NCBI GenBank assembly: GCA_045536845.1 | Contig: JAZSOG010000011.1 | Span: 34,172-98,171, forward strand | Source of the DNA: Kiritimatiellia bacterium | GTDB lineage: Bacteria > Verrucomicrobiota > Kiritimatiellia > RFP12 > UBA1067 | Direction: 5' to 3' | DNA: 64,000 bases | In this document: positions 2,773 to 48,059 of the stretch, one piece after another | Numbering within the stretch: position 1 is the first letter of the stretch | Layout of the letters: every line of letters begins with the position of its first letter | The notes under the pieces: model-generated | The model's database searches: none | Told to the model about the DNA's origin: nothing | The model's input: only the letters and a program-made list of their open reading frames with translations | Translations under genes and position numbers: made by a program

Positions 2773-2816
2773 ATTTTACCAAACGCCGCACATCAATGGA
2801 ATATACGATGGTATAG
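2773..2816 (-). promoter_or_regulatory. predicted promoter of the GH paralog: palindrome ATATAC-GATG-GTATAG (2801..2816), then 22 nt, then TG-extended -10 TGGTAAAAT (hexamer 2773..2778)
   Basis: Read directly. Same palindrome-N22-(-10) architecture as at 32564..32607, 36799..36842, 45455..45498 and 48016..48059. Confidence 0.55.
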
Positions 2817-2832
2817 GCCTGAAAAGACGCCC

Positions 2833-4203
2833 TCAGGCGGAGAGGTGGCTGCGGCGCCACGCCCCGCCGTGGAAACGAAGCGCGAGAATCGTGGCGAGCA
2901 CGGCGAAAAACGAGGGCATTGTCCACCAAAGCGCTATGAGCGCCTTGTGGCACATGGCGATGGCAATCACCGCAGGCATCCATAGGCAGATGTCGCAACC
3001 GAGCTTCGCGCACATGACGAACTTCACGTCGCCGACGCCGCGCAACGCCCCCTCGAACACCAACCCCACGCCCTCTCCAATCTCGCGCAAGAGCATTATG
3101 AAGAACAGCGTGCGCACGGAAGCGCACCATGCGTCCATTGAAAACGCCGCGTCCGTAGGATAGAAAAGCGACGCTATGGGACCTGCAAACGGAAGAAGCA
3201 TGGAATATACCGCAGTCAATATCACGATGCAAAGAAAGAGTCCCGTGCGAACAGTCCGCCTGACGGCAACCGCATCGTCCGCTCCGTGATTGCGCCCGCC
3301 TACGATGCTCATGCCGTCGGAAACGGCGCACATCGTGCAGTAGAAGACGTTGTTGACGGCAAACACCACGTTCGCAGACCCCGCGCCAAGCGCATCGTAT
3401 CGTCCAAGGACGAGCGTAAATACAGTAAACGCGACGCAGGCGGCAAACGACGTCACACCGTTGAAAGAGCCAGTGCGAAGAATCTTGCCCATCAGCGGAA
3501 GATCGGCCTTAAGTGCACCATCGCGCCAATGTGCGCGAACGAGCGCATCGCGGCAGACAGCCGCGCCTTGAAGCACCGTCACCGACGCGAGTGAAATGAC
3601 ACCCGCGATCGCGGCGCCCGCGTTGCCCATCGCAGGGATCGGACCACAGCCGCCGATAAACACGGGGTTCATGGCGATATTTACGAGAACGCCAACTATT
3701 CCGCAGGCCGAAACCCAGCCCGTGCGTCCTTGCCCGGCGAGGAGCCCGCCAAGGACGCCGTTCAGTATCATGAAAAAGCCGCCTGGAACATAGATTGCGA
3801 TGTACGCCTTCTCGCCAGCCGCGACATCGGGAGCGTGCGTAGCAAAATCGACAAGCGCGAACGCGGCAAACACGAGCGCCACCAGAACCGGAATCGAGAA
3901 GATGGAAAGCCACACTCCCTGTGCAAACGCACGCACCGCATCGCGCCCCTTTCCCGCGCCGTGCAGCTGCGCGACATAGACCGACGTGTAGCCGACAGTC
4001 GCGGAGATGAGGCAGACGAACATGACGGAGACCATTGTAGCCGAAAGCGACGCCTGAAGCGGTGCACAGCCACGCTGGGAAAGGAGAAAGCGGTCCCAAA
4101 TGCTGTTCGCCGCGTAGACAAGCTGCATAAGGGCAAGAGGCAGAACGACCTTAAGCGTCTCCTCGAATCCACCCTTCGCCTTGATTTCGCAGTTGTCAGG
4201 CAT
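2833..4203 (-). CDS. MATE family efflux transporter
   Basis: 456-aa polytopic hydrophobic ORF. The N-terminal region EETLKVVLPLALMQLVYAANSIWDRFLLSQ and the overall 12-helix-like pattern are typical of MATE (NorM/DinF-type) exporters. Confidence 0.8.
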   Translation of the reverse strand: MPDNCEIKAKGGFEETLKVVLPLALMQLVYAANSIWDRFLLSQRGCAPLQASLSATMVSVMFVCLISATVGYTSVYVAQLHGAGKGRDAVRAFAQGVWLSIFSIPVLVALVFAAFALVDFATHAPDVAAGEKAYIAIYVPGGFFMILNGVLGGLLAGQGRTGWVSACGIVGVLVNIAMNPVFIGGCGPIPAMGNAGAAIAGVISLASVTVLQGAAVCRDALVRAHWRDGALKADLPLMGKILRTGSFNGVTSFAACVAFTVFTLVLGRYDALGAGSANVVFAVNNVFYCTMCAVSDGMSIVGGRNHGADDAVAVRRTVRTGLFLCIVILTAVYSMLLPFAGPIASLFYPTDAAFSMDAWCASVRTLFFIMLLREIGEGVGLVFEGALRGVGDVKFVMCAKLGCDICLWMPAVIAIAMCHKALIALWWTMPSFFAVLATILALRFHGGAWRRSHLSA

Positions 4204-4219
4204 GGCGATATTATATCAT

Positions 4220-4772: not shown

Positions 4773-5978
4773 CTAGTACAAGAACCCGAAGAGCCACAAG
4801 GGGATTCTGCATCCCCGCCCTACTTCGATGCCGTCCAATGCGAGATAGCTGTCCGGCAAGTCCTTGATCTGCTCGAACGTTTTTCTTTCCCCTCCTATTT
4901 CGAAAAGATGTCGTCCGTCGACAATGCTGTCACCGCGCGAAGGGAAGGCTGTCGTATTGCGAACCGAAAGCTGGTTGTTGAAAAACACTTCGCGGAGCGT
5001 TCCCTTGTCTGGATCGGGCGTAAGCGCGCACATCAAGTTTGTGTTGTCGCAAAAGAGCTTGCTCGGCGAACAAAGGCGCTTCAAGGCATCGGCGTCTTCC
5101 GCCAACATTCCGACTAATCCTGCCCGGCGGAGTGCATGCAAGACCTTGAGCCCCTGCTTGCGATCCATTTCAAGGCCCTGGCACAACTTGGAATTGTTCG
5201 GCGTCTGAGGGGTTGATTCTGCAAGTATCGTCAGCATCCTCCTCGCTTTGCGAATGGTTTCCGGCGTGACGTCCTCGACCTTTGGCAAATCGACATCCAG
5301 AACCTGGTTCACCACCTGAAGAAGTTTTCGATGGAAATGCCGAAGGTCCTCGCGATAGAACGGATAGTAACCATGCTCAAGATACTGTTCGAACTTTGGC
5401 ACGACTTTTACAGTTGAGACAACCGCCTCTGCAATGGACACATGATTTTTCAGGATGTCGCCCAGTTTCTGAACTGGGAATCTACCACACCCCTCAAACT
5501 CCAGAAATTCCCTGAAGGACATTCCGGCAAGTGAATATTCCACCTGGCGGCGCGAAAGATCCGCTTTCCCTTGCGCGAGGCGCAGAATCGAAGATCCCGT
5601 ATAGGCAATCTTCAAGGTCTTGAAATTGTCATACAAGGTCTTGATCAGATTCTGCCAATCTGCGAGATAGTGTATTTCGTCGATGTAGATGCTTTCACCG
5701 CCGTGTCTTACATGATGCTGGGCTAGTTCGTATAACTCCTGAGCGTTCAGCCACACGTTGTCAACGGAAACATAGAGTGCTGAATCCGATTCATCTCGAT
5801 TCTCTCTCAAATGCTGAAGAAGCATCGTCGTCTTTCCAACTCCGCGAGGGCCGTCAAGGGCGACCACCCTTGAATCCCAATCAATCTCATCAAAAAGATA
5901 GCGATGAAACGATGTTTCGGTCTCGCGAATGCGATCAGCGGACATGTCATAAATCATTTGAACGCTCTCTTCAGTCAT
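4773..5978 (-). CDS. AAA ATPase, DUF4143-type (orphan ATP-binding protein)
   Basis: Walker A GPRGVGKTTMLLQ and Walker B-like IYIDEIHY. The C-terminal part is typical of the DUF4143 family. Start moved from the track start (6083) to ATG 5978 (MTEESVQMIY), which is preceded by GGAGAG. Visibly lower GC than its neighbours. Confidence 0.8.
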   Translation of the reverse strand: MTEESVQMIYDMSADRIRETETSFHRYLFDEIDWDSRVVALDGPRGVGKTTMLLQHLRENRDESDSALYVSVDNVWLNAQELYELAQHHVRHGGESIYIDEIHYLADWQNLIKTLYDNFKTLKIAYTGSSILRLAQGKADLSRRQVEYSLAGMSFREFLEFEGCGRFPVQKLGDILKNHVSIAEAVVSTVKVVPKFEQYLEHGYYPFYREDLRHFHRKLLQVVNQVLDVDLPKVEDVTPETIRKARRMLTILAESTPQTPNNSKLCQGLEMDRKQGLKVLHALRRAGLVGMLAEDADALKRLCSPSKLFCDNTNLMCALTPDPDKGTLREVFFNNQLSVRNTTAFPSRGDSIVDGRHLFEIGGERKTFEQIKDLPDSYLALDGIEVGRGCRIPLWLFGFLY

Positions 5979-6005
5979 GGCATTGCTCTCCAATGTGTAG
6001 TTTGC

Positions 6006-6054
6006 AAACCACGTAATTTCGCAATTATCGTGGTTTTTAAACAACGATATTGTA
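6006..6054 (-). promoter_or_regulatory. candidate promoter (TGATACAAT, hexamer 6049..6054) and operator-like palindrome AAACCACG-N15-CGTGGTTT (6006..6036) in the ATPase leader
   Basis: Sequence inspection of the coding strand: GATATGATACAATATCG...AAACCACGATAATTGCGAAATTACGTGGTTT...GGAGAGCAATGCCATG. Confidence 0.4.
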
Positions 6055-6093
6055 TCATATCGCGCACAAGGGTGCAAGAGCACGTCTCAGGAG

Positions 6094-6177: not shown

Positions 6178-7884
6178 TTATCGGATTATGATAATCGTAC
6201 CACTGCTACTCTTTGTCAGCTGGAGTTCGTAGTAGGTTACGCCGTCCTCTTCCACCTCAACATTGTATTTTGCCTTGTAGCCGGAAGTTACGCTGTCAAA
6301 TGTGCCCGTCACGGCATCGACCGTGCGCATGACGGTCCAAGTCCCCTGCTTGACCTTCCCACATTCGATGACATCAATGTTGCCACCTTCGATTGTGACA
6401 AAGCAGCGGTATTGCGTCGTTCCGGAGGTGGTGACCATGGTCGAAGTCCCATCCGGGCGCACTGTCACCACAAGATGGGAACCGGGCTTGATCACCAACT
6501 TGTTATAGCAGCGAAGGTCCATCGCACAGTCATCAAACCTGAGCGATCCCACGCGATAGCCATCATAGGAGAGCCCGCCCGGCACCAGATATCCGTTCCG
6601 GCCAACTACACAGCTCTTGTTGTCGCAGCTGGCGAAATCGGCATCATCGCCCAGCCATAGTTTTCCATTGAACTTGTCCTTGCTGGTGACAACGGAGTTC
6701 CCGGCGATTCCACGAAGATTGGCCGTCAGGTTGTGGTCGCTGAAATAACCATTTCCAATCCAGTTGCCGTATCCTGTGTCGAGGATCAGGTTCGTAGCAT
6801 TTGCGATGCTGGAGGAGAGCCGCTGGCGCGCGCGATAGACGCCAAAGAACTTGGACATATCATCCCTGGAAATCGGCGTTCTGTTGTAGTCGGGCAACCT
6901 ATAGTCGAACACCGGCTTCAGCGGGTCTGTGTTCCAGGTCGTGTCGAGCGTCACATTGAAGTGCTCCTTGTCCGCGCCTACGCCGTTGATGTAGAAGAAC
7001 TGGTCGCACACCTTCACGGTTCCGTTCGATATCACACCGCAATACACCCAGTTTCCGTTGCGACGAGGCCGGATGACGCCCGACTTGACCGTCAGCGTGT
7101 GGCCGTTGAGGTCGAGCGTCGTCCCATTGTGAATTTTCAGCGCGTTGATCGTCACGTCATCGGTCAAAGTTACACTACTTGAGGCATTGGACAGATAGAC
7201 GCAATCGTTCTCCCCGGCAGACATGATATCGTCGATAACATAGTCGGCGTCACCGGCTTCGATGAGCCTGCCATCTGCCGACAGCTTCAAGATCTCGCAG
7301 GGCCCGCCATTATTCGACGTCGCGACAAATTGCGGAGCAACGCCGTTGTATGTTTTCACAGAACTTGTGTCCGTGATGGTGAAAGTATTGGGGCTCGTTT
7401 CAAGAACCGCGCAGGCACCCATTGATTCGAACTTCCCGAACGTCGATCCCGACTTGCAAACGAGCTTCGGACATCCCTCGCCAAGGATCAACTTGTCGGC
7501 ATTGACCGTCTTCCATGCCCCAGACGCCGATACATTCCCGCTAAGCGTGAGGCTCTTAAACGTGAAGTCGGCGTCAATGGTCACCGCAATGTCCTGCGAC
7601 TTGGTCATCGAACTTTGTATGACCACTTCGTCATCAAAGCCAGGCGCCACGGAAGCTGGCGAGCCGTCAACCAACCAATTAGTCGGCTCCGACACATTGC
7701 CAGACGCAATGTTTGTATTCCATACGTATGTTTCCGCCAACGAGGGCACGACGAAAAGAAGCGCGGCAATAGCGCAAAGCGAGGATTTCATGATAGTCTT
7801 CATGGCTGTATTCATGAGTGTTTTCATTTTGATACTCTCGGTGTAGTTTTTCCCTTCACCACGCATTGTATCAAATTCCAGCAT
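6178..7884 (-). CDS. secreted beta-helix repeat protein (autotransporter-associated beta-strand-repeat-like), C-terminal tail ...SSSGTIIIIR; paralog of 9308..11224
   Basis: Signal peptide MKSSLCAIAALLFVVPSLA (several possible Met starts between 7884 and about 7800). The ETYVWNTNIASGNVSEPTNWLVDG motif and LNGHTLTVKSG are shared with the 638-aa ORF and with the giant proteins. Lower GC than flanking DNA. Confidence 0.75.
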   Translation of the reverse strand: MLEFDTMRGEGKNYTESIKMKTLMNTAMKTIMKSSLCAIAALLFVVPSLAETYVWNTNIASGNVSEPTNWLVDGSPASVAPGFDDEVVIQSSMTKSQDIAVTIDADFTFKSLTLSGNVSASGAWKTVNADKLILGEGCPKLVCKSGSTFGKFESMGACAVLETSPNTFTITDTSSVKTYNGVAPQFVATSNNGGPCEILKLSADGRLIEAGDADYVIDDIMSAGENDCVYLSNASSSVTLTDDVTINALKIHNGTTLDLNGHTLTVKSGVIRPRRNGNWVYCGVISNGTVKVCDQFFYINGVGADKEHFNVTLDTTWNTDPLKPVFDYRLPDYNRTPISRDDMSKFFGVYRARQRLSSSIANATNLILDTGYGNWIGNGYFSDHNLTANLRGIAGNSVVTSKDKFNGKLWLGDDADFASCDNKSCVVGRNGYLVPGGLSYDGYRVGSLRFDDCAMDLRCYNKLVIKPGSHLVVTVRPDGTSTMVTTSGTTQYRCFVTIEGGNIDVIECGKVKQGTWTVMRTVDAVTGTFDSVTSGYKAKYNVEVEEDGVTYYELQLTKSSSGTIIIIR

Positions 7885-9307: not shown

Positions 9308-11224
9308 TTAGCGGAGCGAGATTCGCGTGCCTACGTTCTTCCGCGAGACGACAACGGCGTAGGAGCCATCCTCCTGCTGGACGTCATATTGCACACGGAA
9401 GCCCTGCGTGACGCTCGCGAACTTTCCGGTGCGCATCCCTTCGTGATACTTGATGATCGGATACGTAGCGCCAAACGCGACCTTGCCGCCAGTCGTGACG
9501 GATAGCGCGCCTGCAAGCGAGACGGAGAGGTATTTGCCCTCGACCTTGGTTCCCGATGCATCAAGGCAACCGCAGGTGCCGTCGGAATTGATGGACGTCA
9601 TAAACGTTCCGCCCTCCTGCATCAGGAACGCGCGAAGCATCATGACGTTGAACGCATGTTCCATGTAGGGCATACGAATGGAACCACGACGGCCGCCGTC
9701 GTAGCCGACGAGCCCGGGCGCGAATACGCCCTTGTTGCCAACCATCACGGAGCAATTCACCGTCCCGTTCGCGACGAGCGCCACATCGTCGTCCGACATT
9801 TCGCCGAGCCACACGTTGCAGTTCCACTTGTTCGCTCCGTTCCAGATGAAGTTGATCTCGCCGTCGCCGGCCAGACCTCCAAAGTTGGCCTTGCGCTCCG
9901 AGTTCTGCGAACTCAGATTGCTGTTGCGCAACTCAAGGACAGCTTTCGGCGCCTCGAAAGACGACTGCAGGTAATAGGGCTTGCCCATCGGCGTCGAAAA
10001 GACGCCCGTGAAGCCAGCATACTTGGACTTGACCGCCCAGCCACCGCCCTGGTCCTCATGGACCAGCATCGGTGTAAGGACATCGCTGACGCCCTCTGTT
10101 TCAAAGTCGACCTGCATGCGCACATCGGTGTTGTTCGTTCCATCCGCCAAGACATTCGGCCTGCAAAGCCGCGCCTTGCCGTTCGAAACGGTCTTGCCGA
10201 ACAATCCGCCCGATCCCTCGCGGAACTGGCCGCTTTTCACGGTCACCGTATGTCCGCCGAGATCGCAGCTCGCACCCGAGAAGAGGACGGCGTTCACAGT
10301 GGCGTCTGACGCGAGGGCCGTGGCGTTGGTGATGCAGACGTTGTCGAGCGCGGTCGCGTTCTCGAACGAGTCGAGCATGGCTTCCTGCGGAATCTTGCGA
10401 ATGACGCCGTTTGCGTCAATCGTGCAAAGCGAGTGACCATAGCGAACCCCCATGACCGACTGATTGCCGCCAGGAAGAAGGAATTGCGGACAGACCGGAA
10501 TCTGCGAACCGGGATTGTCGAGTGTATCTGTGCCGCCAATCATCTCGACGGAATTCCTGTCAACAATCGTCACTTTCCCGTCGTTGACGAGAACCGAGGA
10601 GACGCCGGAACCGGGACGAGTCTCAAGCGAGGCGAAGGAGAAGGAATAGGCGCCATTTTGGCTGTAAACCCGCCCGGGGCCGCCCTGGAGAATCAGCTTT
10701 CCAAACACCTTGCCATCCTCCCAGCCGGAGTAAAGACATCCGCCGTCCACGAGCAGAATCTCGGTCGTTCCGCTGTTAGCGGGAAACACCTGACCGCTGC
10801 CGACGATTGCAAGCTGCTTGAGATTGGCGAGGTCCGTGATCTTCCCGTCGACTGTTATGTTGTCAAAGACGAGCGTACCGCCGCCGGCGCCCGCAAGCTT
10901 GGCATTGTTGTTGTTGACCTTGAGCGTGTAGCTCTTCGAAGGTCCGGGCGTGCGGAAGACGTGCTTGCCGACGGACGAGACAGTAAGGCCGTCGAGGGTG
11001 ACGCTCTCCGAAAGCTCGATGAACGAATCGGCATCGCCGACGACGACGCTCGACCCTTCGCCCGGAACGCCCGCGGCACCCGCGTCCGTGGTGGCCCACA
11101 TCGTGGAATCGTTCCATGAGCCGACGCCTCCCTTCCAAGTGTAGGCAGCGGCGTCCGCCATCGCGGCGGGCACGCCGAAAACAATCGCTGCAAGTATTGC
11201 GATCAAGGCACGAACAGTTGTCAT
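9308..11224 (-). CDS. secreted beta-helix repeat protein, C-terminal tail ...NVGTRISLR; paralog of 6178..7884
   Basis: Signal peptide MTTVRALIAILAAIVFGVPAAMA. AAYTWKGGVGSWNDSTMWATTD and LGGHTVTVKSG motifs. C-terminal region FASVTQGFRVQYDVQQEDGSYAVVVSRKNVGTRISLR aligns with FDSVTSGYKAKYNVEVEEDGVTYYELQLTKSSSGTIIIIR. Confidence 0.8.
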   Translation of the reverse strand: MTTVRALIAILAAIVFGVPAAMADAAAYTWKGGVGSWNDSTMWATTDAGAAGVPGEGSSVVVGDADSFIELSESVTLDGLTVSSVGKHVFRTPGPSKSYTLKVNNNNAKLAGAGGGTLVFDNITVDGKITDLANLKQLAIVGSGQVFPANSGTTEILLVDGGCLYSGWEDGKVFGKLILQGGPGRVYSQNGAYSFSFASLETRPGSGVSSVLVNDGKVTIVDRNSVEMIGGTDTLDNPGSQIPVCPQFLLPGGNQSVMGVRYGHSLCTIDANGVIRKIPQEAMLDSFENATALDNVCITNATALASDATVNAVLFSGASCDLGGHTVTVKSGQFREGSGGLFGKTVSNGKARLCRPNVLADGTNNTDVRMQVDFETEGVSDVLTPMLVHEDQGGGWAVKSKYAGFTGVFSTPMGKPYYLQSSFEAPKAVLELRNSNLSSQNSERKANFGGLAGDGEINFIWNGANKWNCNVWLGEMSDDDVALVANGTVNCSVMVGNKGVFAPGLVGYDGGRRGSIRMPYMEHAFNVMMLRAFLMQEGGTFMTSINSDGTCGCLDASGTKVEGKYLSVSLAGALSVTTGGKVAFGATYPIIKYHEGMRTGKFASVTQGFRVQYDVQQEDGSYAVVVSRKNVGTRISLR

Positions 11225-36919: not shown

Positions 36920-36933
36920 AACATCGAACACCG

Positions 36934-38607: not shown

Positions 38608-41388
38608 TCACCTGGCCGCGAGCTCGTAGACCATCGTCGGGGCGTTTGCACCTTCGCCGGCGGCAATCTTGGCGGTGAAGCGGTAGACGCCACCCTCGTA
38701 GACCGCGGGAACCTGGCGGAGACGCGTGCCGTCCGACGCGACCGCCCAGACCTTGAGGCCCTTGTTTGAATTCTTCAGAGCAATCTTCGCTTCGCCGGCC
38801 GCGGCGAGATAGGGAAGCGCGCCCCAGTTCGTCATCTCCGTTCTGCCAGCGCTCTTGAACTCCGCGCCCGAGTTGAGGACGTCCGTGAGATGGAAGATCA
38901 CGACGCGCTTCGACGACGCAAGCGGCGCGCCGTCCATCGACGAGGCGGATACGCAGCAGAACGCGGTCACGCCCGAGACGGCGAGCGGACCCGCCGCGAG
39001 GTCGGACTTCTTGATCGAGCATACGCCCGCCGTGCGCGGCGTGGAGACCTTGAGCGTCCCCTTGTTGTAGTCGATCGAAAGCTCGCGCGTTTCCGAGACG
39101 CCCGCTTTGTTGAATGCGGGTATCTCGCCCTTGTTCGACGCTGTATAGATCTTGTCCACGTGCAGCGCGGGCTTCTTCCCCCCGTCCGCGACGAACGAGC
39201 CGATGCGGCAGATGTGCCCGAGCTCGGTGAACGGCAGCGGGAAGAGACCCCTCGACCACATGTCGCCGAGTCCGCCGCCGAAAGCCTCCGCCGCGGTGAC
39301 GCCGTAGGCCGCCGTCCCCTTCGCGGGCGCGGCGTCGCGGCGTCCGAAGAGTAGGACGGCCTGGCGCTCGGTGAGCTGGGAGAGCGGATCGGTTACCATA
39401 TCAAAGCCTTTCGACGGACTCGGCTTAAACATGTTGCCCTTGTCGTGACTCCACGCAAAGCGGTAGATGCCGTCCCAGTCCTGGAGCGAGGCGTAGGCGC
39501 CCATCATGAGTCCGCCTTCCGCGCGCCACTGGTTGGGGTTGCAGAAGTTCCACTCCGAGACGGTGAACGGCTTTCCGAATACGCGCGTACACGCCATCAT
39601 GATCGGCAGCGAGTACGCGGCGCTTCCGTTCTTGAGGTTCGCCTGGTTGTTGAAGCGCATCACCACGTTGCCGGAGTTGCCGTGGTAGATGTCGGCGTAC
39701 TGATGGTTGTCTACGACCTCGAGCGCCTCGCGCTCGTAAGTCTGGCCCATGTTCTCCCACCAGTTGCCGCCCGAGATGAGCGTCTTCACGCCCGCGTCCT
39801 TAAGCCGCTTCGACATACGGCGGTTCGCGTTCGCCTTAACCTCGTAAAGAAACTCGGCGAACTCCTTGCGCCTGCCGATGTCCTTCTTCTCGTACTGCGG
39901 ATAGCCCTTCCCCTTCGCCCACTCGTTGTACTTCTTGACGTAGACGTCTTCCGCACCTGACCAGACGGACGCGATGGAGTCCTCGTTGAGGAGCGTGACG
40001 AAAAGGACGGCCGGATCGTCCTTCCACTTTATCCCCGTGTATGGGTTCACGTGGTCGAAGAGTTCCATCGAGCGCTTGAACCACAGGTCCTCGGCGGGCT
40101 TGTGGATCGGGACGATCGCCTTGATGGTGCCGCAGTGAAGCGGCTTGTCGAAGCCCTCGCAACTTCCGTAGCTGCCCATCGCGTAGAGATCGAAGGTTAT
40201 GTAGACGCCCGCCTTCTTGCATGCCGCGACGAGGTAGTCGAGCTGGTCGAGACGCTGCGGAGAGATGGTCGGCCATGTACGACGGTTCCAGATGTCGTTC
40301 CATTCCTCCTTCGTGATCGTGACGTCGAGGTGGTGGAGGCGTATTGTGTTCCATCCGCGCATCACGAAGTCGCGCACCGCGCGGTCCGCTTCATCTTTCG
40401 AGAGGAAGTTCGCGCTGAAGCAGAGATTGCCGCCGACGAAGCGTCGCGGCGTCCTCTTCGCATCCTTCTCGAAGACGAAATGCCCCTCCGGCGACACGCG
40501 CGCGAAGCCGTACGCGCCCGCGGGCTCGTCGTGGCGCGTGACCTTCGAGAAGTCGAGGATCGTGCCAGGCTTGACGTCGTTCGTCCACGGGAACTTCACC
40601 CACTTGTCTCCCGCGGCGAGCTTCAGGGGCGGAGGCGGAAGCCCGAGCTTTACGCTGCCGCTCGCCCTTCCGAGCGAATCGGCGAAGACGCCCTGCACCT
40701 CGAACTCGACGGTCGAGCGCGCGGCGTTCTTCGCGTCCGGGAACTCGATGCGCAGCTCGAAGAGCTCCTTCTTGTCCTTTCGCGCGTCGGCGAGGACGGC
40801 GTTTCCGGAGACGACGGACACCCTCAGCTTCTTCTTCCCGCCCTTAGAGGCGATCTCGATGCGGCTTTTGTCACCAAGCCCCAGGAACTCCTTCCCGTAG
40901 GCCGCCGGAAGCTTCGCGCCGCCGGCCGTTCCCTCCGCGAAGTCGTTCACTGGCAGCGGGAAGCACAGGTACGCGCGCTCGAGCTTCAGCGGCGCGCCGT
41001 CCGTGGAGGAGAGCGTCCAGCGGACGTGCACCTTGGCAGCGTCGCCCTTAGTGACGTCGAAGAACTCCTCGCGGATCGCGATGCCGCGTCCGCCCGGCCA
41101 CATCTTCGCCGTGTGGAGAAGGCCCTTGCCGAACTTCGGATCGTCGACGGTGGACTTCTTGTGCTCCTTCGCGGCGTAGTCCTGCGCGGCGAACTGCCAG
41201 CCCGGGCCGAACACTATGAAGTTGACAAATCCCCATTCGACCTTGGGATCGTTCCGGATGATCCCCTCGACCTGGGGAAGCCCGCGCCCCTCAACTCCGA
41301 TCGTCGCGTACGTGTCTGCGAAAACCGCCGTAGCAGCTGACAGCGTGGCGGCCGCAACAGCCGAAACAATCATGCACCTTATCTTCAT
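38608..41388 (-). CDS. secreted glycoside-hydrolase-like protein (clan GH-A TIM-barrel type), paralog of <1..2703
   Basis: Start set at ATG 41388 (MKIRCMIVSAVAAATLSAATAVFA), preceded by GGAGGGAG. NTIRLHHLDVTI, VTLLNEDS (NE acid/base-like) and FTVSEWNFCNP (nucleophile-like) fit a (beta/alpha)8 clan GH-A enzyme. Lies 50 nt downstream of the 1303-aa gene. Confidence 0.8.
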   Translation of the reverse strand: MKIRCMIVSAVAAATLSAATAVFADTYATIGVEGRGLPQVEGIIRNDPKVEWGFVNFIVFGPGWQFAAQDYAAKEHKKSTVDDPKFGKGLLHTAKMWPGGRGIAIREEFFDVTKGDAAKVHVRWTLSSTDGAPLKLERAYLCFPLPVNDFAEGTAGGAKLPAAYGKEFLGLGDKSRIEIASKGGKKKLRVSVVSGNAVLADARKDKKELFELRIEFPDAKNAARSTVEFEVQGVFADSLGRASGSVKLGLPPPPLKLAAGDKWVKFPWTNDVKPGTILDFSKVTRHDEPAGAYGFARVSPEGHFVFEKDAKRTPRRFVGGNLCFSANFLSKDEADRAVRDFVMRGWNTIRLHHLDVTITKEEWNDIWNRRTWPTISPQRLDQLDYLVAACKKAGVYITFDLYAMGSYGSCEGFDKPLHCGTIKAIVPIHKPAEDLWFKRSMELFDHVNPYTGIKWKDDPAVLFVTLLNEDSIASVWSGAEDVYVKKYNEWAKGKGYPQYEKKDIGRRKEFAEFLYEVKANANRRMSKRLKDAGVKTLISGGNWWENMGQTYEREALEVVDNHQYADIYHGNSGNVVMRFNNQANLKNGSAAYSLPIMMACTRVFGKPFTVSEWNFCNPNQWRAEGGLMMGAYASLQDWDGIYRFAWSHDKGNMFKPSPSKGFDMVTDPLSQLTERQAVLLFGRRDAAPAKGTAAYGVTAAEAFGGGLGDMWSRGLFPLPFTELGHICRIGSFVADGGKKPALHVDKIYTASNKGEIPAFNKAGVSETRELSIDYNKGTLKVSTPRTAGVCSIKKSDLAAGPLAVSGVTAFCCVSASSMDGAPLASSKRVVIFHLTDVLNSGAEFKSAGRTEMTNWGALPYLAAAGEAKIALKNSNKGLKVWAVASDGTRLRQVPAVYEGGVYRFTAKIAAGEGANAPTMVYELAAR

Positions 41389-41457
41389 TTCTCCCTCCGT
41401 TATCAAAGCCGATTAATTCACGCTGCGGCGCTGCGAGTTCAACCACTCTGCACGCAA

Positions 41458-44400
41458 TTATCTGACAATCAACTGAAAACCGCCACCCGTCACGATAAGT
41501 TTACCGCCAGCGCCTTCAGCCGTGTCAACGAGATAGTCTGCCAGCGTTCCTTCTCCGATCTCAATCTTCGATCCCGCGGCGTATGTGCCTGGCGCGAGCT
41601 TCACGCCATTGACCTTCGCAGACCTGACCGTGAATGTCTTGCCGTTGAGATCAAGCACAGTGCCAGAGTCCATTTCGAGCACCGACATCCTGAGACCTGC
41701 GAAGAGCTTCACCCTTGCAGCCGCCTCGGTCTTGAGCGATGCCTTGCGGAAATCGTCCGTCTCGCCACCGGCCTTGACGGAAGGAATCGCCGTGAACGCG
41801 ACATTGTTCGCCGTGTTGCCGGTGTTGCGGATGACAATCGTGCCCGCACCTTCCGCCTGGTTCGCCGTCTGGAGGTAGATCGAGCCGGCGGACGAAGAGC
41901 GGTCAGCGGCAAACTTGGACGTGTAGTAGCCTTTGGCGTTGATCTTTGTCAACCAGGCATCGGAGAACGTTTCGCCCGCGCCCGTGAGGCGCACGGCGAT
42001 GCGCCCGCCGCCGCTTGAATTGCCGGAATCATCCTCAGAATAGTTGCGCGAATTGCCGTTCGCCTCAATGCGCCCAGCACCTTCAAGACGTCCGGCGGTG
42101 ATGTCGATCGATCCCGGCGCGCCGGAACGAGCGTCCGCAACGATCGGTGTCGCGCTTGCGACGCCGTCCAGCGTCAGCGTTCCGCCGACCACGAGGCGGA
42201 TTGCCCCGCCGCCGACGTTGACGCGGCCGTTGTCGGCGCCGAACGTGCCGGGATGGCGCGGGCGGAAGAACGAGTCGTAGGCAACATTCGACGTCGACCT
42301 TCCGCACTGTCCGCCATGGCAGGAGGTGCTTCCGCCGCCAACAGTCGCGGCACCGGTCGCGATGTAGCCGCCGCGGACGGCGCGCAGATACGAACTCGAT
42401 GCGACGTGCATGTCGCCGGAGACGGCAAGGCCGCAGGTTCGCACATTATTCGATGTGTCGGAGTAGAGCAGTAGCGTTCCCACGCCTGCCCCATTCGTGA
42501 CGACAAGGTTGCCGTCTAGCGCGAAGTCCTTAGGCTCGAATATCCACTTGCCGGAAATCGTGTGCGTCGCCGCGCTCGGCAGCAGGAGCGTGCCGCCGTC
42601 GACGATCAGGCCCGTTTCGTCGAGCGTGTTGCCGGTCGAGGAAACGGACGCGAGGCCGCCGCGCAGGTCGAGCGTCGTTCCGGTCGGAACCTCGAGGATG
42701 GCGTTCGCGCCGAAGACGATTTCGTCGAGGACCCACGTCTGACCCGCCGGGATGCGCGTGAGCTGGTTGGGCTTCGGGCGATATGCGTACATCCCGTACT
42801 TGTTCGTCCGGTCGCGGAGATACAGGACGCCGTTGGGCTTGAGCGGCGAGCGAACGAGAATCGTGCCGACGCTGCCGACCTTTGCGTAGGACGATACGCC
42901 GCCAAGCGCCGTAAGGTTCGCGTCCGGGAGACCGAGTTCACCGTTCGTGATGAGGACGGAGACGCGACCTCCGGCACCGGAGTTCTGGTTGGAGCCGGAA
43001 CTCGTGTTCGTGCAGTCCGCGGAGATCTTGCCCGATCCGGACAGCGTCGCGGTCTTAAGATAGACGGCGCCGCCCGAGCCGGAATAGCCGTTCCACTGTC
43101 CCCATGCGGAGACGCTGTCGGAACGGATCGAGCCGTCGAGTTGTGTACCGCCCGTGACCTCAATCCAGACCGCGCCGCCGGCAGGGGCGTTGTATGTATT
43201 GTCAGCCGCCGGACTTGAACCGACGCCGTACGGCTCGGTCAGACTGCCCCAGGAGAGTCCGCCGTCGTAGCTTCCGCCGTAGGCGCCGGCGCCTGTTCCG
43301 GAGTGAGGTCCATAGGCACCCTTGCCGGTGGCGTGGATCTGCGCGCCGGACGCGACTGCCAGGTTTCCGCCGACATCGATGCGCAGACGGTAGTAGTCTT
43401 CCTTGTTCGTGGCGTTGTGCGCCTTGTGAGTTACCTTGCCTGAAGCAATAGTCATGTCGCCGGAAACGGTCAGACAGGTAAAGCCACCCTTCTCCGGGAA
43501 TACGGTATCGACCGTGACCGTGCCGGTGTAACCATTCGTCTGCGTCCAGGAGGCGACCGTCGGCGTCGCGGCGGCGTCCCACTCGCAGTTCGCCGTCGAG
43601 AATCGCCCGTCGAAAAGAATGTTGTCGGACGCGGCAGGTGCGACGCCCTTGGACCAGTTGGAGCCTTCCGACGCGAGGCCGTCCGCCGTCGCAATCCATG
43701 TGTTGTAGCCAGCGGGGGCAGTGAGATTGACGAGCGTCAGCGTTGCAGACGTGACGGCAGGCATCTCGTAGTTACCTGCAGCAAGCGTCACGGTAATTGC
43801 GATGTCCTCGGTGACAGCGGAGTCAAGGATCGGCGCGACAAGTAGGTATCCTGTCGTTTCGCCAGCCGGTATTGTGACGGCGGTCGGTGCGTCCCATGTC
43901 GTTCCCTCGGCGGCTCCGACAGCGGAAGAGGAAATCGTGTAGTTCACCGTGAGCGGGAACGGGTCGTCGTTGGCACGCGAAACTGCAACCTTGCCGGCGA
44001 CAAGACCGTTCTCGTTCGCGTCCGTCGTCGCACCAAGAGAGAGTTCTCCCGTGTAGAACGTTCCGACGACCTTCTCGGCCGTGTCGCTGGCGTTCGTCGC
44101 AAGAATTGTCGCCTGCCAGGTCGTGTCCGCCGAAAGTCCGGAGATTGTCCATGTCGCAGAGTTTCCTTCGGCAACGGACTGCCAGCCGTTAGTCGAGACT
44201 GTCTCGCCATCCGATAGAATGTACGAGAGATCGGCGGCGTTGGCGTCCTCGGTCGCAGAGAGCGAGTAGGCGAGTGCACCAGTGCGGGAGAGGGAGACTG
44301 TTCCAAGATCGGGGGATTCGGTGTTGATGTAGAAGAACTCGAGCTCGTCGATTTGAATGTAGGAATCGCTCTCGTCCTGGTTCGCCGTAACCGCGAAACG

Positions 44401-45369
44401 ATAGGAGTCATAGGCGGTGTTGTTCTGGAACTCATAGTAACGGCTTTCGAGCGACGACCACCCAGTTTCCGACGATTGCGCGTCGAGGACGGCCCACATG
44501 ACGTCCTCCGCGTTCTTCGCCTCAAACGTCCAGGTCTTCGGCATGCGCTTGTCGTAGAAGTAGGGGGTCGTGCTCGGGCAGTACACCTTGTAGGCGTTGA
44601 CGACCGTCGGGGAGTCGAAGGTGTAGATCCAGTCCACGGTCGTGCCGCTGTGGATGGAGCGGTCGTCGTTGTTGTGGGCTGTTCCGTTGTCGAAGGCGTT
44701 TTTCGCGGGCTTCACCCAGTCGCCGGTGGTGGTCGTCGTAACGGCGCCGTTCGGATTCGTGAGATCCGTGAGGACAAATCCGGTGTCGCAGAGGAACTGG
44801 ATTTCGTAGATCTGCAGGTAGGAGTTCGAGCCGAGAATCTCCGTACAGCTGAACTTGTAGTATTCGTAAGCCGTCTCGTTTTCAAAGTGGAAAGACTTCA
44901 TCACGTCTCCGACGGGCCAAGTCACGCTCGAGCGCGCGTCAAGCTGCGTCCATGTCGAGCCGTCGTTCGAACCGTGGAAAGTCCACGCCTTCGGCGAGCG
45001 TTTGTTCGATTCATTTGCGTTTTTGATTCGAATACGGAGGATGTTGACCTTCGTCGGGGCGTTGAACTTATAGACAAGGTACATCGGATTGCTGGTCGTC
45101 TCCGCAAGCCATCTGCAGTCATCGCTGCTCCAGTTGCCGTCAAAGGCGTGATCGGCCGTGTAAGGGCTAAGCGTCGGGGATGACTCGACGACAGCACCGG
45201 CGGAGGCTGAGGTGTCGACGAGCAGTTGGTCGGGCGGCGTAGTTGCCGCGGCGCGCGCTTCGAGCGCGGCGAGCGCACACACGAGAAATGCCGCCGTTAG
45301 CGGGAATATTCCGCGTGCGAAACGCGATTTCAGAATCGAACCGGAAACTTCGGTATATTTCATTGCCAT
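41458..45369 (-). CDS. giant secreted surface protein (1303 aa): two F5/8 type C (discoidin/CBM32-like) domains, FN3-like + Calx-beta module, parallel beta-helix, C-terminal tail ...GGGFQLIVR
   Basis: Discoidin-type blocks YTADHAFDGNWSSDDCRWLAE...MYLVYKF..VNILRIRIKN...WTFHGSNDGSTWTQLD, and a second copy ..AKNAFDNGTAHNNDDRSIHSG..WIYTF. Calx-beta block VAVSRANDDPFPLTVNYTISSS. Signal peptide MAMKYTEVSGSILKSRFARGIFPLTAAFLVCALAALEARA. Confidence 0.85.
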   Translation of the reverse strand: MAMKYTEVSGSILKSRFARGIFPLTAAFLVCALAALEARAAATTPPDQLLVDTSASAGAVVESSPTLSPYTADHAFDGNWSSDDCRWLAETTSNPMYLVYKFNAPTKVNILRIRIKNANESNKRSPKAWTFHGSNDGSTWTQLDARSSVTWPVGDVMKSFHFENETAYEYYKFSCTEILGSNSYLQIYEIQFLCDTGFVLTDLTNPNGAVTTTTTGDWVKPAKNAFDNGTAHNNDDRSIHSGTTVDWIYTFDSPTVVNAYKVYCPSTTPYFYDKRMPKTWTFEAKNAEDVMWAVLDAQSSETGWSSLESRYYEFQNNTAYDSYRFAVTANQDESDSYIQIDELEFFYINTESPDLGTVSLSRTGALAYSLSATEDANAADLSYILSDGETVSTNGWQSVAEGNSATWTISGLSADTTWQATILATNASDTAEKVVGTFYTGELSLGATTDANENGLVAGKVAVSRANDDPFPLTVNYTISSSAVGAAEGTTWDAPTAVTIPAGETTGYLLVAPILDSAVTEDIAITVTLAAGNYEMPAVTSATLTLVNLTAPAGYNTWIATADGLASEGSNWSKGVAPAASDNILFDGRFSTANCEWDAAATPTVASWTQTNGYTGTVTVDTVFPEKGGFTCLTVSGDMTIASGKVTHKAHNATNKEDYYRLRIDVGGNLAVASGAQIHATGKGAYGPHSGTGAGAYGGSYDGGLSWGSLTEPYGVGSSPAADNTYNAPAGGAVWIEVTGGTQLDGSIRSDSVSAWGQWNGYSGSGGAVYLKTATLSGSGKISADCTNTSSGSNQNSGAGGRVSVLITNGELGLPDANLTALGGVSSYAKVGSVGTILVRSPLKPNGVLYLRDRTNKYGMYAYRPKPNQLTRIPAGQTWVLDEIVFGANAILEVPTGTTLDLRGGLASVSSTGNTLDETGLIVDGGTLLLPSAATHTISGKWIFEPKDFALDGNLVVTNGAGVGTLLLYSDTSNNVRTCGLAVSGDMHVASSSYLRAVRGGYIATGAATVGGGSTSCHGGQCGRSTSNVAYDSFFRPRHPGTFGADNGRVNVGGGAIRLVVGGTLTLDGVASATPIVADARSGAPGSIDITAGRLEGAGRIEANGNSRNYSEDDSGNSSGGGRIAVRLTGAGETFSDAWLTKINAKGYYTSKFAADRSSSAGSIYLQTANQAEGAGTIVIRNTGNTANNVAFTAIPSVKAGGETDDFRKASLKTEAAARVKLFAGLRMSVLEMDSGTVLDLNGKTFTVRSAKVNGVKLAPGTYAAGSKIEIGEGTLADYLVDTAEGAGGKLIVTGGGFQLIVR

Positions 45370-45500
45370 TCCCCTTAGTGCATCGTTTCGCTTCTGGCGA
45401 TATTATACCACTTCGGACAAATATCGTCAATGACCTGAACCATCGTCAGATGACATTCTAACAAAACGAGGCAGGGATAGGAATATACAAAAGTATATTC
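45370..45500 (-). promoter_or_regulatory. conserved promoter/leader cassette, copy C: palindrome GAATATAC-AAAA-GTATATTC 45481..45500; P1 TAGAAT 45455..45460; P2 TTGACG (45425..45430), 17 nt, TATAAT (45402..45407)
   Basis: Read directly. The distal palindrome arm overlaps the stop codon of the upstream beta-helix gene (45499..45501). Confidence 0.6.
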
Positions 45501-47982
45501 ACTTCCCAAGCCGGAACTTGGAGGAGAGGAACGAGAAAATTCGGTCGGGGTGCGACTCCCAAAGCGGCGGCTGCCCATTAAGGCCGAAAATGCAGTCGTC
45601 TGCGAGTTTTTCCCACTTCTCGTTCAGCTCCGGGCCAAGAATCTTTGCGATGGATTCAATCCTGGCGACCATCGCCACGGCACAGGCAAGGTCGCCAGCG
45701 GCAGAAAGCCAAGGCCCGTCCGCGCCCTTTTCCTCTACAAAGCGCCGCGCCGCGAGAAGCGCGACTTCCTTCATCACCGCCTCGGCCTTGCTGGCGCGCG
45801 ACGAATCCGCAAGCCGAATCACCTCGAGCGAGGCGTTCATCTGCAGAAACGAATACCCGGGCATCTGCCACTTCCGCTCCTGCTCGGAAAGCTTCGACAC
45901 GCCCCAAGACTGCTCTATCGCCTCGTCGACGAATTTCTCGTACGCCTCGCGGTAGCGTTCGTTGCCAGTCGTCTTCCACGCCGCGGCGTACACCATCGGC
46001 AGCCGCGCCGCCTCGTGCGGCTGCACATTCCACATCTTTAGGACACCCTTCGCGTCTTGCCTCCCGTTCGCGTCAAGCGCGTTCCATCCGTTCGTCTCGG
46101 TGACGTTTGCAATCATCCTGTCGGCAAGCGCGGCAAATGCGCCGCGTATCGCGTCCTTCTCATCGCGTGACGCCATCCCGCTCTCGTAGTAACGATAGAG
46201 TCCGTGTACGAAGTGGGTGATCTGGTCGCGCGAAGAGCCCCTGTTCACCGTTGCGCCGTCGCGCGACACGCCGCGGCACACATAGCCGGGGATCTTCGTG
46301 CCAAGCGAGAGAAGCGCCTTTGCGACGCCCTTCGCGCGCTCCGCGTCGTATTTGTCGACGAGCGCTGAAAGCGCGAGCCCAGCGATTATCGCGCAATCTT
46401 CGGTATCGTCCTCTCCCGCACCGAGGAAAAGCCCCGTCGCCTCGGAGCGGAACGTCGATGCGTGCGCCCAGGTCGCGGCGAAAGTGTCGAACTGGAATGG
46501 GATGCGGCAGCGAACGACCTCGTTGCCGTCGAACACGTTGTATTTCGGCAGGCGCGGCTCGTCATCCATTATCTTCGCGAGCTTCGGATACCTTCCCGCC
46601 CACGGCTCGGAACGATAGCCGAGATCTTCGGCCTTCTTCACGAGGTTCCAGCTCGGATCGTCCGGATTGTTCCAGTGCTGCGTCCAGGTGACCCCGCGGT
46701 CGTCGAGGTGGATCGCGATGTCGCAGTCTACCATCTTGTTCCCGACGACGACGTTCTCTCGTCCGCCGCCGAGCATCACGGCGCAGCCCGCGCGCTCGAA
46801 GACGTTGCTTGCTACCGTATCGCCGCAGTCGCAGTCGTCAAGGTACACGCCCATCGTGAAGACGTCGCGGCTCTTGCCGTTCGATATCGTGCGCCCGAGG
46901 TCGTGGATGCGGTTTCCTACGACCTTGTTGCCCTGGCTCGTCCAGTCGCGACCAGTGTAAAGCGCACCCGCGTCGCCTGTCTCCTTCACGACGTCGAAGA
47001 TGTCGTTCCCTTCGATCAGATGCTCGTTGCCGCCGTAGATGATCGCCGAATGGGGCGCGTCGTGGATGCGACAGCCGACGACCTCGTTGCCGCAGCCGTG
47101 CATCGCGACGCCAGGCGCGTATACGCGCTGCAGGAGTGCGAAGCGCGAGATGTCGCACCCGACGACGCGGTTGCCGCCCTTCGCGAGAGTGCGCCTGTTG
47201 CCGCCGTTCAGCGCGACGCCCCTCCGCCCGACGTTGCGTATGACGCAGTTTGAGATGACGACCCCTTCGCAGTCTCCGGCGATGTCGATGCCGTCTCCGG
47301 CAACGCATTCAATCGTGCAATCCGCCACGAGAACGTCGCGGCAGTCGCGGAGCACGAGTCCCGCGCCGCCGCCAAGCGCGATCGTCTTCCCTCGCACGAC
47401 CTCGCCGCGCCGGTGTTCGAGAAGCAAGACCGGCTCGTCGCCCCAGGCGATCGTCACCGGATTGGACGCGATATCGCCCCCGGGCGGGATAAAGAAAAGC
47501 GTGCTTCCCTCGACAAGCCATTCGCCCTCGGTGTCGAGGAAGCTCCTGTGACCGACGGCGTAGAACCGGCGCTTCTTCTGACCCCAGCTCGCCTTGCCGA
47601 TGCCGAACACGTGCTTGTCCTTGAACCGCGCGACGCCGTTCGAGACGGACGCGACGCGCAGTATCTCGAAAGCCCAGTCGTGCGTCCAGTAGCCGGCGAG
47701 CGAATAGCCGGAATCTGGCAGGCCCGTGACAGTCACGTTGTCCTCTCCTTCGAAAGTGAACCACGAGCCCTCCTCGGGTTCGCGTGCAAGCGTCATCGGA
47801 GCGCTTCCGAAGTATAAAGATGGGTGGCGAGGGAGATTCGTCCAACCGCCGCTATGGTATTCACCAGGAGTGACGCTGATGCCAATCCCAGAGAGGTCGC
47901 ACGACCAGACGCCGTTCTCGCCTTTGACAAATGAATCGGCGGGGAGAATCGCGGAAGCCGCCAGCAGAAGTGTTGCTATCAT
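45499..47982 (-). CDS. right-handed parallel beta-helix repeat enzyme (polysaccharide lyase/hydrolase-like) with a C-terminal alpha-helical domain
   Basis: Repeated ..V.GC.I.D..HSAIIYGGNEHLIEGNDIFDV..ETGDAGALYTGRDW..QGNKVVGNRIHDLG is typical of beta-helix (pectate-lyase-fold) proteins. N-terminal signal MIATLLLAASAILPA. Confidence 0.75.
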   Translation of the reverse strand: MIATLLLAASAILPADSFVKGENGVWSCDLSGIGISVTPGEYHSGGWTNLPRHPSLYFGSAPMTLAREPEEGSWFTFEGEDNVTVTGLPDSGYSLAGYWTHDWAFEILRVASVSNGVARFKDKHVFGIGKASWGQKKRRFYAVGHRSFLDTEGEWLVEGSTLFFIPPGGDIASNPVTIAWGDEPVLLLEHRRGEVVRGKTIALGGGAGLVLRDCRDVLVADCTIECVAGDGIDIAGDCEGVVISNCVIRNVGRRGVALNGGNRRTLAKGGNRVVGCDISRFALLQRVYAPGVAMHGCGNEVVGCRIHDAPHSAIIYGGNEHLIEGNDIFDVVKETGDAGALYTGRDWTSQGNKVVGNRIHDLGRTISNGKSRDVFTMGVYLDDCDCGDTVASNVFERAGCAVMLGGGRENVVVGNKMVDCDIAIHLDDRGVTWTQHWNNPDDPSWNLVKKAEDLGYRSEPWAGRYPKLAKIMDDEPRLPKYNVFDGNEVVRCRIPFQFDTFAATWAHASTFRSEATGLFLGAGEDDTEDCAIIAGLALSALVDKYDAERAKGVAKALLSLGTKIPGYVCRGVSRDGATVNRGSSRDQITHFVHGLYRYYESGMASRDEKDAIRGAFAALADRMIANVTETNGWNALDANGRQDAKGVLKMWNVQPHEAARLPMVYAAAWKTTGNERYREAYEKFVDEAIEQSWGVSKLSEQERKWQMPGYSFLQMNASLEVIRLADSSRASKAEAVMKEVALLAARRFVEEKGADGPWLSAAGDLACAVAMVARIESIAKILGPELNEKWEKLADDCIFGLNGQPPLWESHPDRIFSFLSSKFRLGK

Positions 47983-47988
47983 GGTTTC

Positions 47989-48059
47989 ATTATACCAAAA
48001 CCGCGCGACGGCAATCTATACAATAGTATAGAGACTGCGATGCACCTCTTTGATATAAT
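47989..48059. promoter_or_regulatory. bidirectional promoter region: central palindrome TCTATAC-AATA-GTATAGA (48015..48032) flanked by TGGTATAAT (hexamer 47989..47994, minus) and TATAAT (48054..48059, plus)
   Basis: Read directly. Spacing from the 6-bp arms to the -10 hexamers is 21 nt on the minus side and 22 nt on the plus side. Confidence 0.6.

Follow-up and report, generated by a model that had tools for sequence, protein, structure and literature searches.

What function resides in a 16-bp palindrome, [A/C]TATAC-N4-GTATA[T/G], that recurs upstream of genes for large secreted proteins is the question raised by a 64,000-nucleotide (nt) stretch of a Kiritimatiellia bacterium (assembly GCA_045536845.1, contig JAZSOG010000011.1, positions 34,172 to 98,171). 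This whole stretch is called the window below, and positions are counted within it. The palindrome is proposed to be the operator of a two-component system specific to a rumen/gut clade of Kiritimatiellia, whose response regulator would bind it and probably activate the adjoining promoters; the probability assigned to this model as a whole is about 0.68. A periplasmic signal, probably a glycan, would be detected by a HisKA_3 sensor kinase, which would phosphorylate a NarL/FixJ-type response regulator of 208 amino acids (aa). The regulator dimer would then bind TATAC-N4-GTATA, abutting a weak -35 element, and most likely activate TG-extended -10 promoters in a class II manner, with the single site at 48016-31 serving two divergent promoters. 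That the regulator physically binds the site, that it activates and does not repress, and what the signal is are points that we infer from the comparisons that follow.

Exactly five copies of the palindrome are present in the window, all of them intergenic, where none are expected from 100 dinucleotide-preserving shuffles, and allowing one mismatch in the 14-bp core yields no further copy in the window. The composite pattern TATAC-N4-GTATA-N17-18-TTTGNTANAAT matches exactly six window promoters, again with 0 expected by chance. The initial annotation of this DNA had listed the five 16-mers, six -10 hexamers at 21 or 22 nt from them (21 nt for the minus-strand promoter at 47989) and longer arms at two copies (8 bp, 45481-45500; 7 bp, 48015-48032), and all of these were recovered exactly on re-checking. 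The sites and their promoters are as follows, P1 denoting the palindrome-linked promoter of those genes that have two.

2801 to 2816, minus strand: operator copy 1, reading CTATACCATCGTATAT on the coding strand
2773 to 2783, minus strand: extended -10 of the gene at <1-2703, TTTGGTAAAAT, hexamer at 2773-2778; weak -35 TTCCAT at 2796-2801
32592 to 32607, minus strand: operator copy 2, at the 5' edge of a paralogous promoter module
32564 to 32574, minus strand: P1 extended -10 of the gene for a 1795-aa protein, TTTGTTAGAAT; -35 TTCATA at 32587-32592
36827 to 36842, minus strand: operator copy 3
36799 to 36809, minus strand: P1 extended -10 of the Calx-beta giant gene, TTTGTTAGAAT; -35 TTCCTA at 36822-36827
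45483 to 45498, minus strand: operator copy 4, with the 8-bp arms, abutting the stop codon of the beta-helix gene
45455 to 45465, minus strand: P1 extended -10 of the unit of the gene for a 1303-aa protein, TTTGTTAGAAT; -35 TTCCTA at 45478-45483
48016 to 48031, no strand assigned: operator copy 5, common to two divergent promoters
47989 to 47999, minus strand: extended -10 of the beta-helix gene, TTTGGTATAAT, 6 nt before the ATG; leaderless, palindrome centre at -41.5
48049 to 48059, plus strand: extended -10 of the esterase-GH39 gene, TTTGATATAAT

The -10 boxes are of a kind that is widespread in this DNA. TGnTAnAAT occurs 17 times in the window, mostly just upstream of gene starts and several times only 6-8 nt from the ATG, and the genes so preceded include those for MatE, an AAA-ATPase, seryl-tRNA synthetase, an amidase, citrate synthase and the kinase. 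Boxes at this short distance from an ATG lie at 4210, 20548, 25818, 47989, 53133 and 56403, all on the minus strand. Judged from the sequence, the organism generally uses promoters with TG-extended -10 boxes and often makes leaderless mRNAs, including those of housekeeping genes, which makes the -10 assignments of the initial annotation credible. The TTTG form of the extension is nearly confined to palindrome promoters (6 of 7 occurrences).

The register of the palindrome can be read from the leaderless genes. Among the matches listed, 14 of 98 operator-linked genes appear to be leaderless, and these include the beta-helix gene (47982) and the orthologs of gene <1-2703 in three other loci (L020, L039 and L042). 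If the A of the ATG is taken as +1, the 14-bp core before such a target falls at -48 to -35 or -49 to -36 and its centre at -41.5 or -42.5, in agreement with the centre near -41/-42 predicted earlier. A weak -35 hexamer, mostly TTCCnn but also TTCAnn or absent, directly abuts the palindrome at 17 bp from the -10. A sigma-70 consensus scanner called no full promoter at 47900-48150 and at 36700-36950 found only P2, a second promoter described below, and not P1. The earlier description of the -35 positions as poor agrees with both results, P1-type promoters being rejected by the scanner for want of a -35. The class II-like geometry that had been proposed is therefore supported in its fixed register with an extended -10 and in its weak -35, activation being a step further than geometry.

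Two further regularities were not imposed by the search pattern. The four central bases follow an asymmetric consensus, Y-W-T-N, whose third base is T in 17 of 18 representative promoters, and the promoter-proximal flank TTCC is conserved. In addition, orthologous genes keep the palindrome and its register despite otherwise dissimilar promoters, for instance the MotA/ExbB-like gene in L049 and L052. It is very probable that the palindrome is a transcription-factor operator held in fixed register with real promoters.

A fivefold recurrence of the palindrome had been judged unlikely by chance, and the shuffles bear this out; the count of five itself needs correction, for three of the copies are paralogous duplicates. 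Those at 32592, 36827 and 45483 form the 5' edge of a module of ~180 bp that differs very little among the three giant genes. When their upstream regions are aligned, it is seen to hold the palindrome, the promoter, a leader of ~85 nt and a signal peptide common to all three, MAMK(H/Y)TEGSGSILKSRFARG; similarity starts exactly at the first base of the palindrome, and none is seen 5' of it. Since these three copies belong to one duplicated module, the window holds about three independent occurrences.

This duplication, together with the position of the palindrome 9-12 nt after the regulator stop codon in several lineages and the folding energies of the longer-arm copies (-6.6 to -8.9 kcal/mol), is what speaks for reading the palindrome as no protein-binding site at all: a by-product of duplicated promoter modules, a mobile-element end, or an RNA hairpin or terminator after the regulator gene. 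Such a reading is very improbable. The palindrome is kept before 23 unrelated gene families, among the matches listed, despite divergent flanks. Folding is weak for most copies (-2 to -4.5 kcal/mol), which lack a T-tract, there is no Rfam match and no covariation in the leader, and what is conserved looks like a sequence-specific half-site and not like base-pairing. A hairpin or terminator was accordingly rejected, given AT-rich stems of -2 to -8.9 kcal/mol, the missing T-tract and a terminator scan that called none.

The module also holds P2, a second and better sigma-70 promoter 53 nt downstream of P1 (TTGACG/TTGGCG-17-TAGAAT/TATAAT). For the three giant genes the promoters assigned in the initial annotation stand as P1, while the P2 in each leader went unmentioned.

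32511 to 32539, minus strand: P2 of the gene for the 1795-aa protein, TTGGCG-17-TAGAAT
36746 to 36774, minus strand: P2 of the Calx-beta giant gene, TTGACG-17-TAGAAT with TG; the sole full match of the sigma-70 scanner in the region
45402 to 45430, minus strand: P2 of the unit of the gene for the 1303-aa protein, TTGACG-17-TATAAT with TG

From its sequence, P2 would be an additional, operator-independent promoter of the three giant-gene units. The sequences after the P1 and P2 -10 boxes are alike (TAGAATGTCGCC...GAACGATG), which suggests that a tandem duplication of the core promoter gave rise to both. The leader of the giant genes is conserved even in the distant locus L062. An alignment of 11 sequences revealed no compensatory base-pair changes in this leader, and an Rfam scan of the whole window gave no match; the conservation is therefore best read at the DNA level, and an RNA structure was rejected in favour of the second promoter.

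Beyond the window, the composite pattern was sought in 185,579 species (one genome per species), which gave 48 loci with 54 matches. Of these, 19 loci (25 matches) are high-GC and come from seven PVC-type or Kiritimatiellia-type rumen/gut assemblies (RUG12612, RUG12088, RUG14632, RUG673, RUG13889, a Kiritimatiellia metagenome-assembled genome (MAG), JAZSLQ01, and a 'Verrucomicrobia' bin), several of which are ~95% identical to the window over genes in common. The other 29 loci are single matches in genomes of at most 52% GC. A scan of metagenomes added at least 47 high-GC loci of the same architecture, and 2.9 million viral contigs contained only seven single matches. The regulon had been proposed to span this genomic island; it is instead genome-wide and clade-wide, with palindrome loci in all seven MAGs.

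Over all high-GC loci there are 97 palindromes among the matches listed, and 95 of them have, on one side or both, an extended -10 (TGnTAnnnT) at a distance of 22-25 nt; of the two that do not, L185:3481 has a TAAAAT at 23 nt that lacks the TG. The gap is exactly 23 nt in 73 of 101 promoter instances among these matches, a count that has to be read with the caution that most instances outside the window were retrieved by a pattern already requiring both palindrome and -10, so that spacing is unbiased for only about ten: the window copies and L035:4821, L062, L065, L067 and L071. These last five, not selected via their -10 box, have gaps of 23-24.

Some metagenome sites form a second sub-class, with an RTTGnn flank one nt further out, a gap of 24, mostly a TACAAT -10 and a GC-richer centre; as in the first, a -35-like hexamer abuts the palindrome at 17 bp from the -10. 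They were seen at L073, L083, L087, L094, L098, L102, L106, L109, L119, L132, L147 and L192, where they precede other secreted proteins, and may represent the sister regulon of another lineage.

Which protein binds the site is suggested by what lies beside it. The candidate binder and its partner are encoded in the window as follows.

18130 to 18756, minus strand: 208-aa NarL/FixJ-type response regulator, receiver plus GerE helix-turn-helix, the candidate palindrome binder
18753 to 20541, minus strand: cognate HisKA_3 sensor kinase, frameshifted, with HisKA_3 and HATPase_c domains; overlaps the regulator start by 4 nt

The receiver domain matches Pfam Response_reg (4.7e-23), with D10, D11, D56, T84 and K106 invariant in a seven-lineage alignment, and the C-terminal helix-turn-helix matches GerE (3.6e-14). 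The protein aligns over its full length with the structures of VraR, DesR, NarL and DevR, its closest solved relatives being VraR/LiaR, DesR and NarL (E 6e-36 to 1e-25). By domain content and pairing with a kinase gene, the regulator is assigned from sequence to the NarL/FixJ two-component class, and to no named subfamily. It is 70-86% identical across lineages, among which the kinases fall to 47%. The core of the recognition helix, T-V-K-V-R-L (within SE[I/V]TVKVRL), is invariant across lineages, and the half-site likewise.

A BLAST comparison of the loci with the window showed that in L020, L039, L042 and L033 the palindrome promoter adjoins a homolog of the window segment 18106-21266, which codes for both partners of the two-component system (GerE-type response regulator and HisKA_3 kinase) and for a UPF0227 protein. 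In L057, a relative of 71% GC, the kinase operon is divergent from the palindrome promoter. About a dozen lineages have the order kinase, regulator, palindrome, with 9-290 nt to the palindrome (L020, L033, L039, L042, L062-65, L067-72, L107, L148, L167 and L183, of which L107, L148, L167 and L183 are metagenome loci among the matches listed), and the gene pair itself is kept in all lineages. A test independent of the motif was provided by five kinase lineages that were fetched by kinase protein homology alone (47-84% identity) and whose genomic context was inspected.

Kinase lineage P0003 (L071/72): palindrome after the regulator
Kinase lineage P0008 (L065): palindrome after the regulator
Kinase lineage P0010 (L062-64): palindrome after the regulator
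Kinase lineage P0011 (L067-70): palindrome after the regulator
Kinase lineage P0012 (L060/61): no palindrome after the regulator

In four of the five, the sole palindrome of the locus lies 9-285 nt after the regulator stop codon and is followed by TTCC and an extended -10 at the usual spacing. The initial annotation had preferred this LuxR/NarL-type regulator over the XylR-type protein as the binder, and the conserved gene order in about a dozen lineages favours the same choice; on such comparative grounds the NarL/FixJ-type regulator is probably the protein that binds the palindrome.

It is improbable, by comparison, that another dimeric regulator binds, be it the XylR-like PBP-AraC protein encoded at 16793-17995 or a protein of CRP/FNR or GntR/LacI type, with the two-component genes linked to the site by functional co-location only. 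A 5-N4-5 layout centred at -41.5 is an FNR/CRP arrangement as well, the sub-class 2 sites have no orthologous two-component system nearby, and L060/L061 carry the system with no adjacent site. Against this stands the proximity of the regulator to the site, within 9-290 nt in about a dozen lineages and in four of the five fetched by their kinase, which is hard to explain otherwise. Genes for helix-turn-helix proteins of CRP/FNR, GntR or LacI type were not found in the window, and AraC-type proteins normally use asymmetric or direct-repeat sites. For the XylR-like protein, the 235 kb of other palindrome loci contain no homolog; in the metagenome set, among the matches listed, only L183 has such a gene, 6 kb from its site. 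The XylR-like protein was rejected as the binder on the ground that its linkage to palindrome loci is not conserved.

Whether the NarL/FixJ-type regulator activates or represses is a separate matter, and activation is favoured, though with less assurance than binding. That the same protein at the same operator represses, or acts in both ways, is an unlikely alternative in which binding at -36 to -49 would block the contacts of sigma region 4 or the alpha subunit at extended -10 promoters that would otherwise be constitutive, until a signal releases the regulator. NarL-family regulators both repress and activate, and the -10 elements are near-consensus and TG-extended, like those of window housekeeping genes; such promoters can be independent of a -35. 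The strict spacing, 22-24 nt and mostly 23 before the 23 gene families, is nevertheless typical of activators that must contact RNA polymerase, whereas the position of repressor sites usually varies, with overlap of the -35, the -10 or the start site. Weak -35 hexamers also tell against repression, and the giant-gene units keep an operator-free P2, which fits an inducible P1 more easily.

Several points weigh against the activating two-component operator. The analysis is computational throughout, and many of the genomes that carry the palindrome are ~95% identical to one another. The near-consensus extended -10 boxes leave room for repression, and in Escherichia coli extended -10 promoters can work without an activator. 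None of the NCBIfam equivalog thresholds is reached by the regulator (best MctR, 136.5 bits vs a cutoff of 300), so its DNA specificity is not transferable from any known protein. The window's own regulator has no adjacent palindrome and its kinase is broken, the P0012 lineage lacks the site, and sub-class 2 loci have at most a paralog of 36% identity (L073 and L119) in place of the orthologous system.

Comparison with known systems places the proposed operator among familiar designs. ComA of Bacillus subtilis, likewise a NarL-family protein, activates transcription by binding to a 6-N4-6 inverted repeat ahead of the RNA polymerase site (PMC4797271). It resembles the present regulator in having a receiver and a tetrahelical LuxR/GerE helix-turn-helix, and its 6-N4-6 operator likewise lies just upstream of the RNA polymerase site. 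Its half-site, however, is TTGCGG (box TTGCGG-N4-CCGCAA), as against ATATAC or (A/C)TATAC here, its promoters carry extra direct-repeat elements, it responds to a quorum-sensing peptide via ComP where a periplasmic jelly-roll and OB sensor is proposed here, and the phylum differs.

As for geometry, the class II pattern is well represented by the FNR box TTGAT-N4-ATCAA, by CRP at -41.5 (including the extended -10 promoter galP1) and by the LuxR/TraR boxes at -42.5/-41.5. These share with the present sites a dyad whose centre lies at -41.5/-42.5, next to or overlapping a poor -35, extended -10 promoters, and one site that can serve two divergent promoters; with FNR the 5-N4-5 core is also shared. 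Unlike there, no CRP/FNR-type protein is implicated here, and the start sites are predicted ones.

VraR/LiaR, DesR and NarL, with the MctR/MadR/NarL models, are the best relatives of the regulator, each paired with a HisKA_3 kinase, and the core of the window kinase is DesK-like by fold. Those kinases sense membrane or envelope signals or nitrate, in contrast to the all-beta periplasmic sensor of ~320 aa here, and the operators differ. The hybrid two-component and SusR-type regulators of polysaccharide utilization loci in Bacteroidota couple a periplasmic glycan sensor to neighbouring secreted glycan-degradation genes. They may be viewed as functional analogues, glycan sensing being a presumption here; theirs is a one-protein hybrid of kinase and AraC as opposed to the two-protein pair of HisKA_3 kinase and NarL-type regulator, and promoters and phylum differ.

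Kiritimatiellia (Kiritimatiellota) abound in rumen, gut and marine sediments, where they break down complex and sulfated glycans; hardly any have been cultured. A literature search found no published promoter, operator or regulon for Kiritimatiellia, and no relevant report of a regulator binding TATAC-N4-GTATA; the operator sequence, the regulon and the sensor architecture are regarded as previously undescribed. The clade gains a promoter model with TG-extended -10 boxes and frequent leaderless mRNAs, a 14-16-bp operator with a named candidate regulator and sensor, and a list of ~23 families of secreted proteins, mostly without an assigned function, that are candidates for co-regulation. Purified regulator domain and synthetic DNA suffice for a direct test of the predictions, which requires no culture, and the operator may be used in metagenomes as a genomic marker for functionally linked glycan-degrading genes. 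The regulation proposed is of an ordinary bacterial type, and its conceptual novelty is limited.

The signal of the proposed pathway can be approached through the sensor kinase, whose layout comprises a signal or transmembrane segment, the all-beta periplasmic part, one transmembrane helix and the DesK-like core. The family is narrow, with 12 full-length relatives or clusters (P0001-P0012; 47-95% identity) among 5.8 billion proteins. For the sensor domain (periplasmic residues ~25-350), no Pfam family was matched, a profile search against PDB sequences gave no match, and the fold of the full-length kinase model matched nothing but DesK-type kinase cores. Residues ~57-120 have weak, sub-threshold NCBIfam matches to glycoside-hydrolase jelly-roll models (rhamnoside_JR, 3.5e-5). 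An AlphaFold model of the sensor alone (pLDDT 78.6) was matched by Foldseek, at E 1e-6 to 1e-4, to GH2 enzymes (beta-glucuronidase, LacZ), presumably through a jelly-roll, and to tandem OB-fold proteins (Teb1, RPA), presumably through two barrels; the TM-scores are low (~0.2) and the matches cover single domains only, which tells against the sensor part of the proposal. The model points to an architecture of a GH2-like jelly-roll and two OB-like barrels, on account of which a glycan is the probable signal; from the predicted fold, a carbohydrate ligand can reasonably be supposed.

The kinase gene of the window is frameshifted, and its main features are these.

20158 to 20173, minus strand: (TTCC)4 tract, which causes the kinase frameshift
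20548 to 20556, minus strand: extended -10 of the kinase operon, TGGTAAAAT, 6 nt before the ATG; leaderless, with no palindrome

The initial annotation had called the kinase frameshift-prone, and the frameshift is real: the window has (TTCC)4 where L001, L002, L003, L033 and L042 have (TTCC)3, and the frame shifts after about residue 126. The tract is very short and a single variant allele was seen; it could stem from slipped-strand phase variation, from a rare mutant or from an error of assembly. It is doubtful that the kinase represents a new kind of periplasmic glycan sensor that binds host or dietary polysaccharide directly, with (TTCC)n slippage in the sensor-coding region as an on/off switch, at the level of the population, for the whole regulon. 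The kinase promoter has no palindrome, and the window therefore gives no sign of autoregulation.

The genes downstream of the operator fall, among the matches listed, into the 23 protein families mentioned above, almost all of which begin with what resembles a signal peptide. The domains that can be recognised are DUF2341, LamG, Calx-beta, F5/8 type C, right-handed beta-helix, an esterase-GH39 fusion and MotA/ExbB-like; many of the families match no Pfam model. The targets in the window are the following.

1 to 2703, minus strand: secreted protein of the 921-aa family, gene <1-2703, cut by the window edge
25897 to 32478, minus strand: unit of the 1795-aa secreted giant protein (27091-32478, DUF2341) and, after a 9-nt gap, a 394-aa open reading frame
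32730 to 36713, minus strand: secreted giant protein with a Calx-beta domain
38608 to 45369, minus strand: unit of the 1303-aa F5/8-type-C protein (41458-45369) and, after a 51-nt gap, a 932-aa protein (38608-41406)
45499 to 47982, minus strand: 827-aa right-handed beta-helix protein
48083 to 50338, plus strand: secreted esterase (BD-FAE) fused to a GH39-like domain

The ortholog of gene <1-2703 stands directly downstream of the two-component system in L020, L039 and L042, and the 932-aa protein is its paralog. The Calx-beta protein likely starts at the ATG at 36713 (1327 aa) and not at the GTG at 36755. The label 'CE4' given earlier to the 394-aa open reading frame finds no Pfam match, and the 'GH paralog' label of gene <1-2703 is left with a very weak GH5 match (E = 0.14) and no Pfam family. 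From these annotations, the common theme appears to be secreted, mostly very large, glycan-related proteins that are carbohydrate-active or carbohydrate-binding. A 265-aa family of MotA/TolQ/ExbB-like proton channels was seen under the operator in L049, L052, L089, L124 and L141, which may mean that a component of energised transport or secretion is regulated together with the secreted enzymes.

Many of the giant secreted proteins end in a common tag at the extreme C-terminus, roughly G-x-G-(F/T)-x-(L/I/V)-(L/I/V)-V-R, seen in the window at 27091-32478, 32730-36713, 41458-45369, 21306-24263, 6178-7884 and 9308-11224 and elsewhere in L026, L053, L056 and L057; it is a candidate sorting or anchoring signal of the clade. 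The proteins of 27091-32478, 32730-36713 and 41458-45369, and many homologs, also have a long conserved N-terminal leader, MK(H/Y)TEGSGSILKSRFARG(I/V/M)FPL..A, before the hydrophobic core, which resembles an extended signal peptide peculiar to this family of proteins.

The XylR-like protein, of which an identical copy is present in ENA metagenome assemblies, owes its place beside the window's regulator to a missing segment. In L183 the order is kinase, regulator, palindrome promoter, a giant F5/8-type-C gene of ~6 kb and the XylR-like gene. Compared with L183 (5519-11654), the window at 17994-18105 is without ~6.1 kb, comprising the palindrome promoter and the giant F5/8-type-C gene; the XylR-like gene adjoins the regulator because this target segment is missing there. 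The window's regulator would thus have lost its adjacent target gene. Left at the missing segment is an imperfect inverted repeat of ~85 nt at about 18003-18087 (AGGCAGTGGCC...CCACTGCCT), whose orientation relative to the regulator gene appears reversed between the window and L183.

Three AAA-ATPase genes (4773-6083, 24525-25811 and 36934-38118; AAA_14/DUF4143 and AAA_22/AAA_16 types) lie in local stretches of low GC (52-55%) among the glycan genes, one of them separating two operator-controlled units, and may have been inserted or be mobile.

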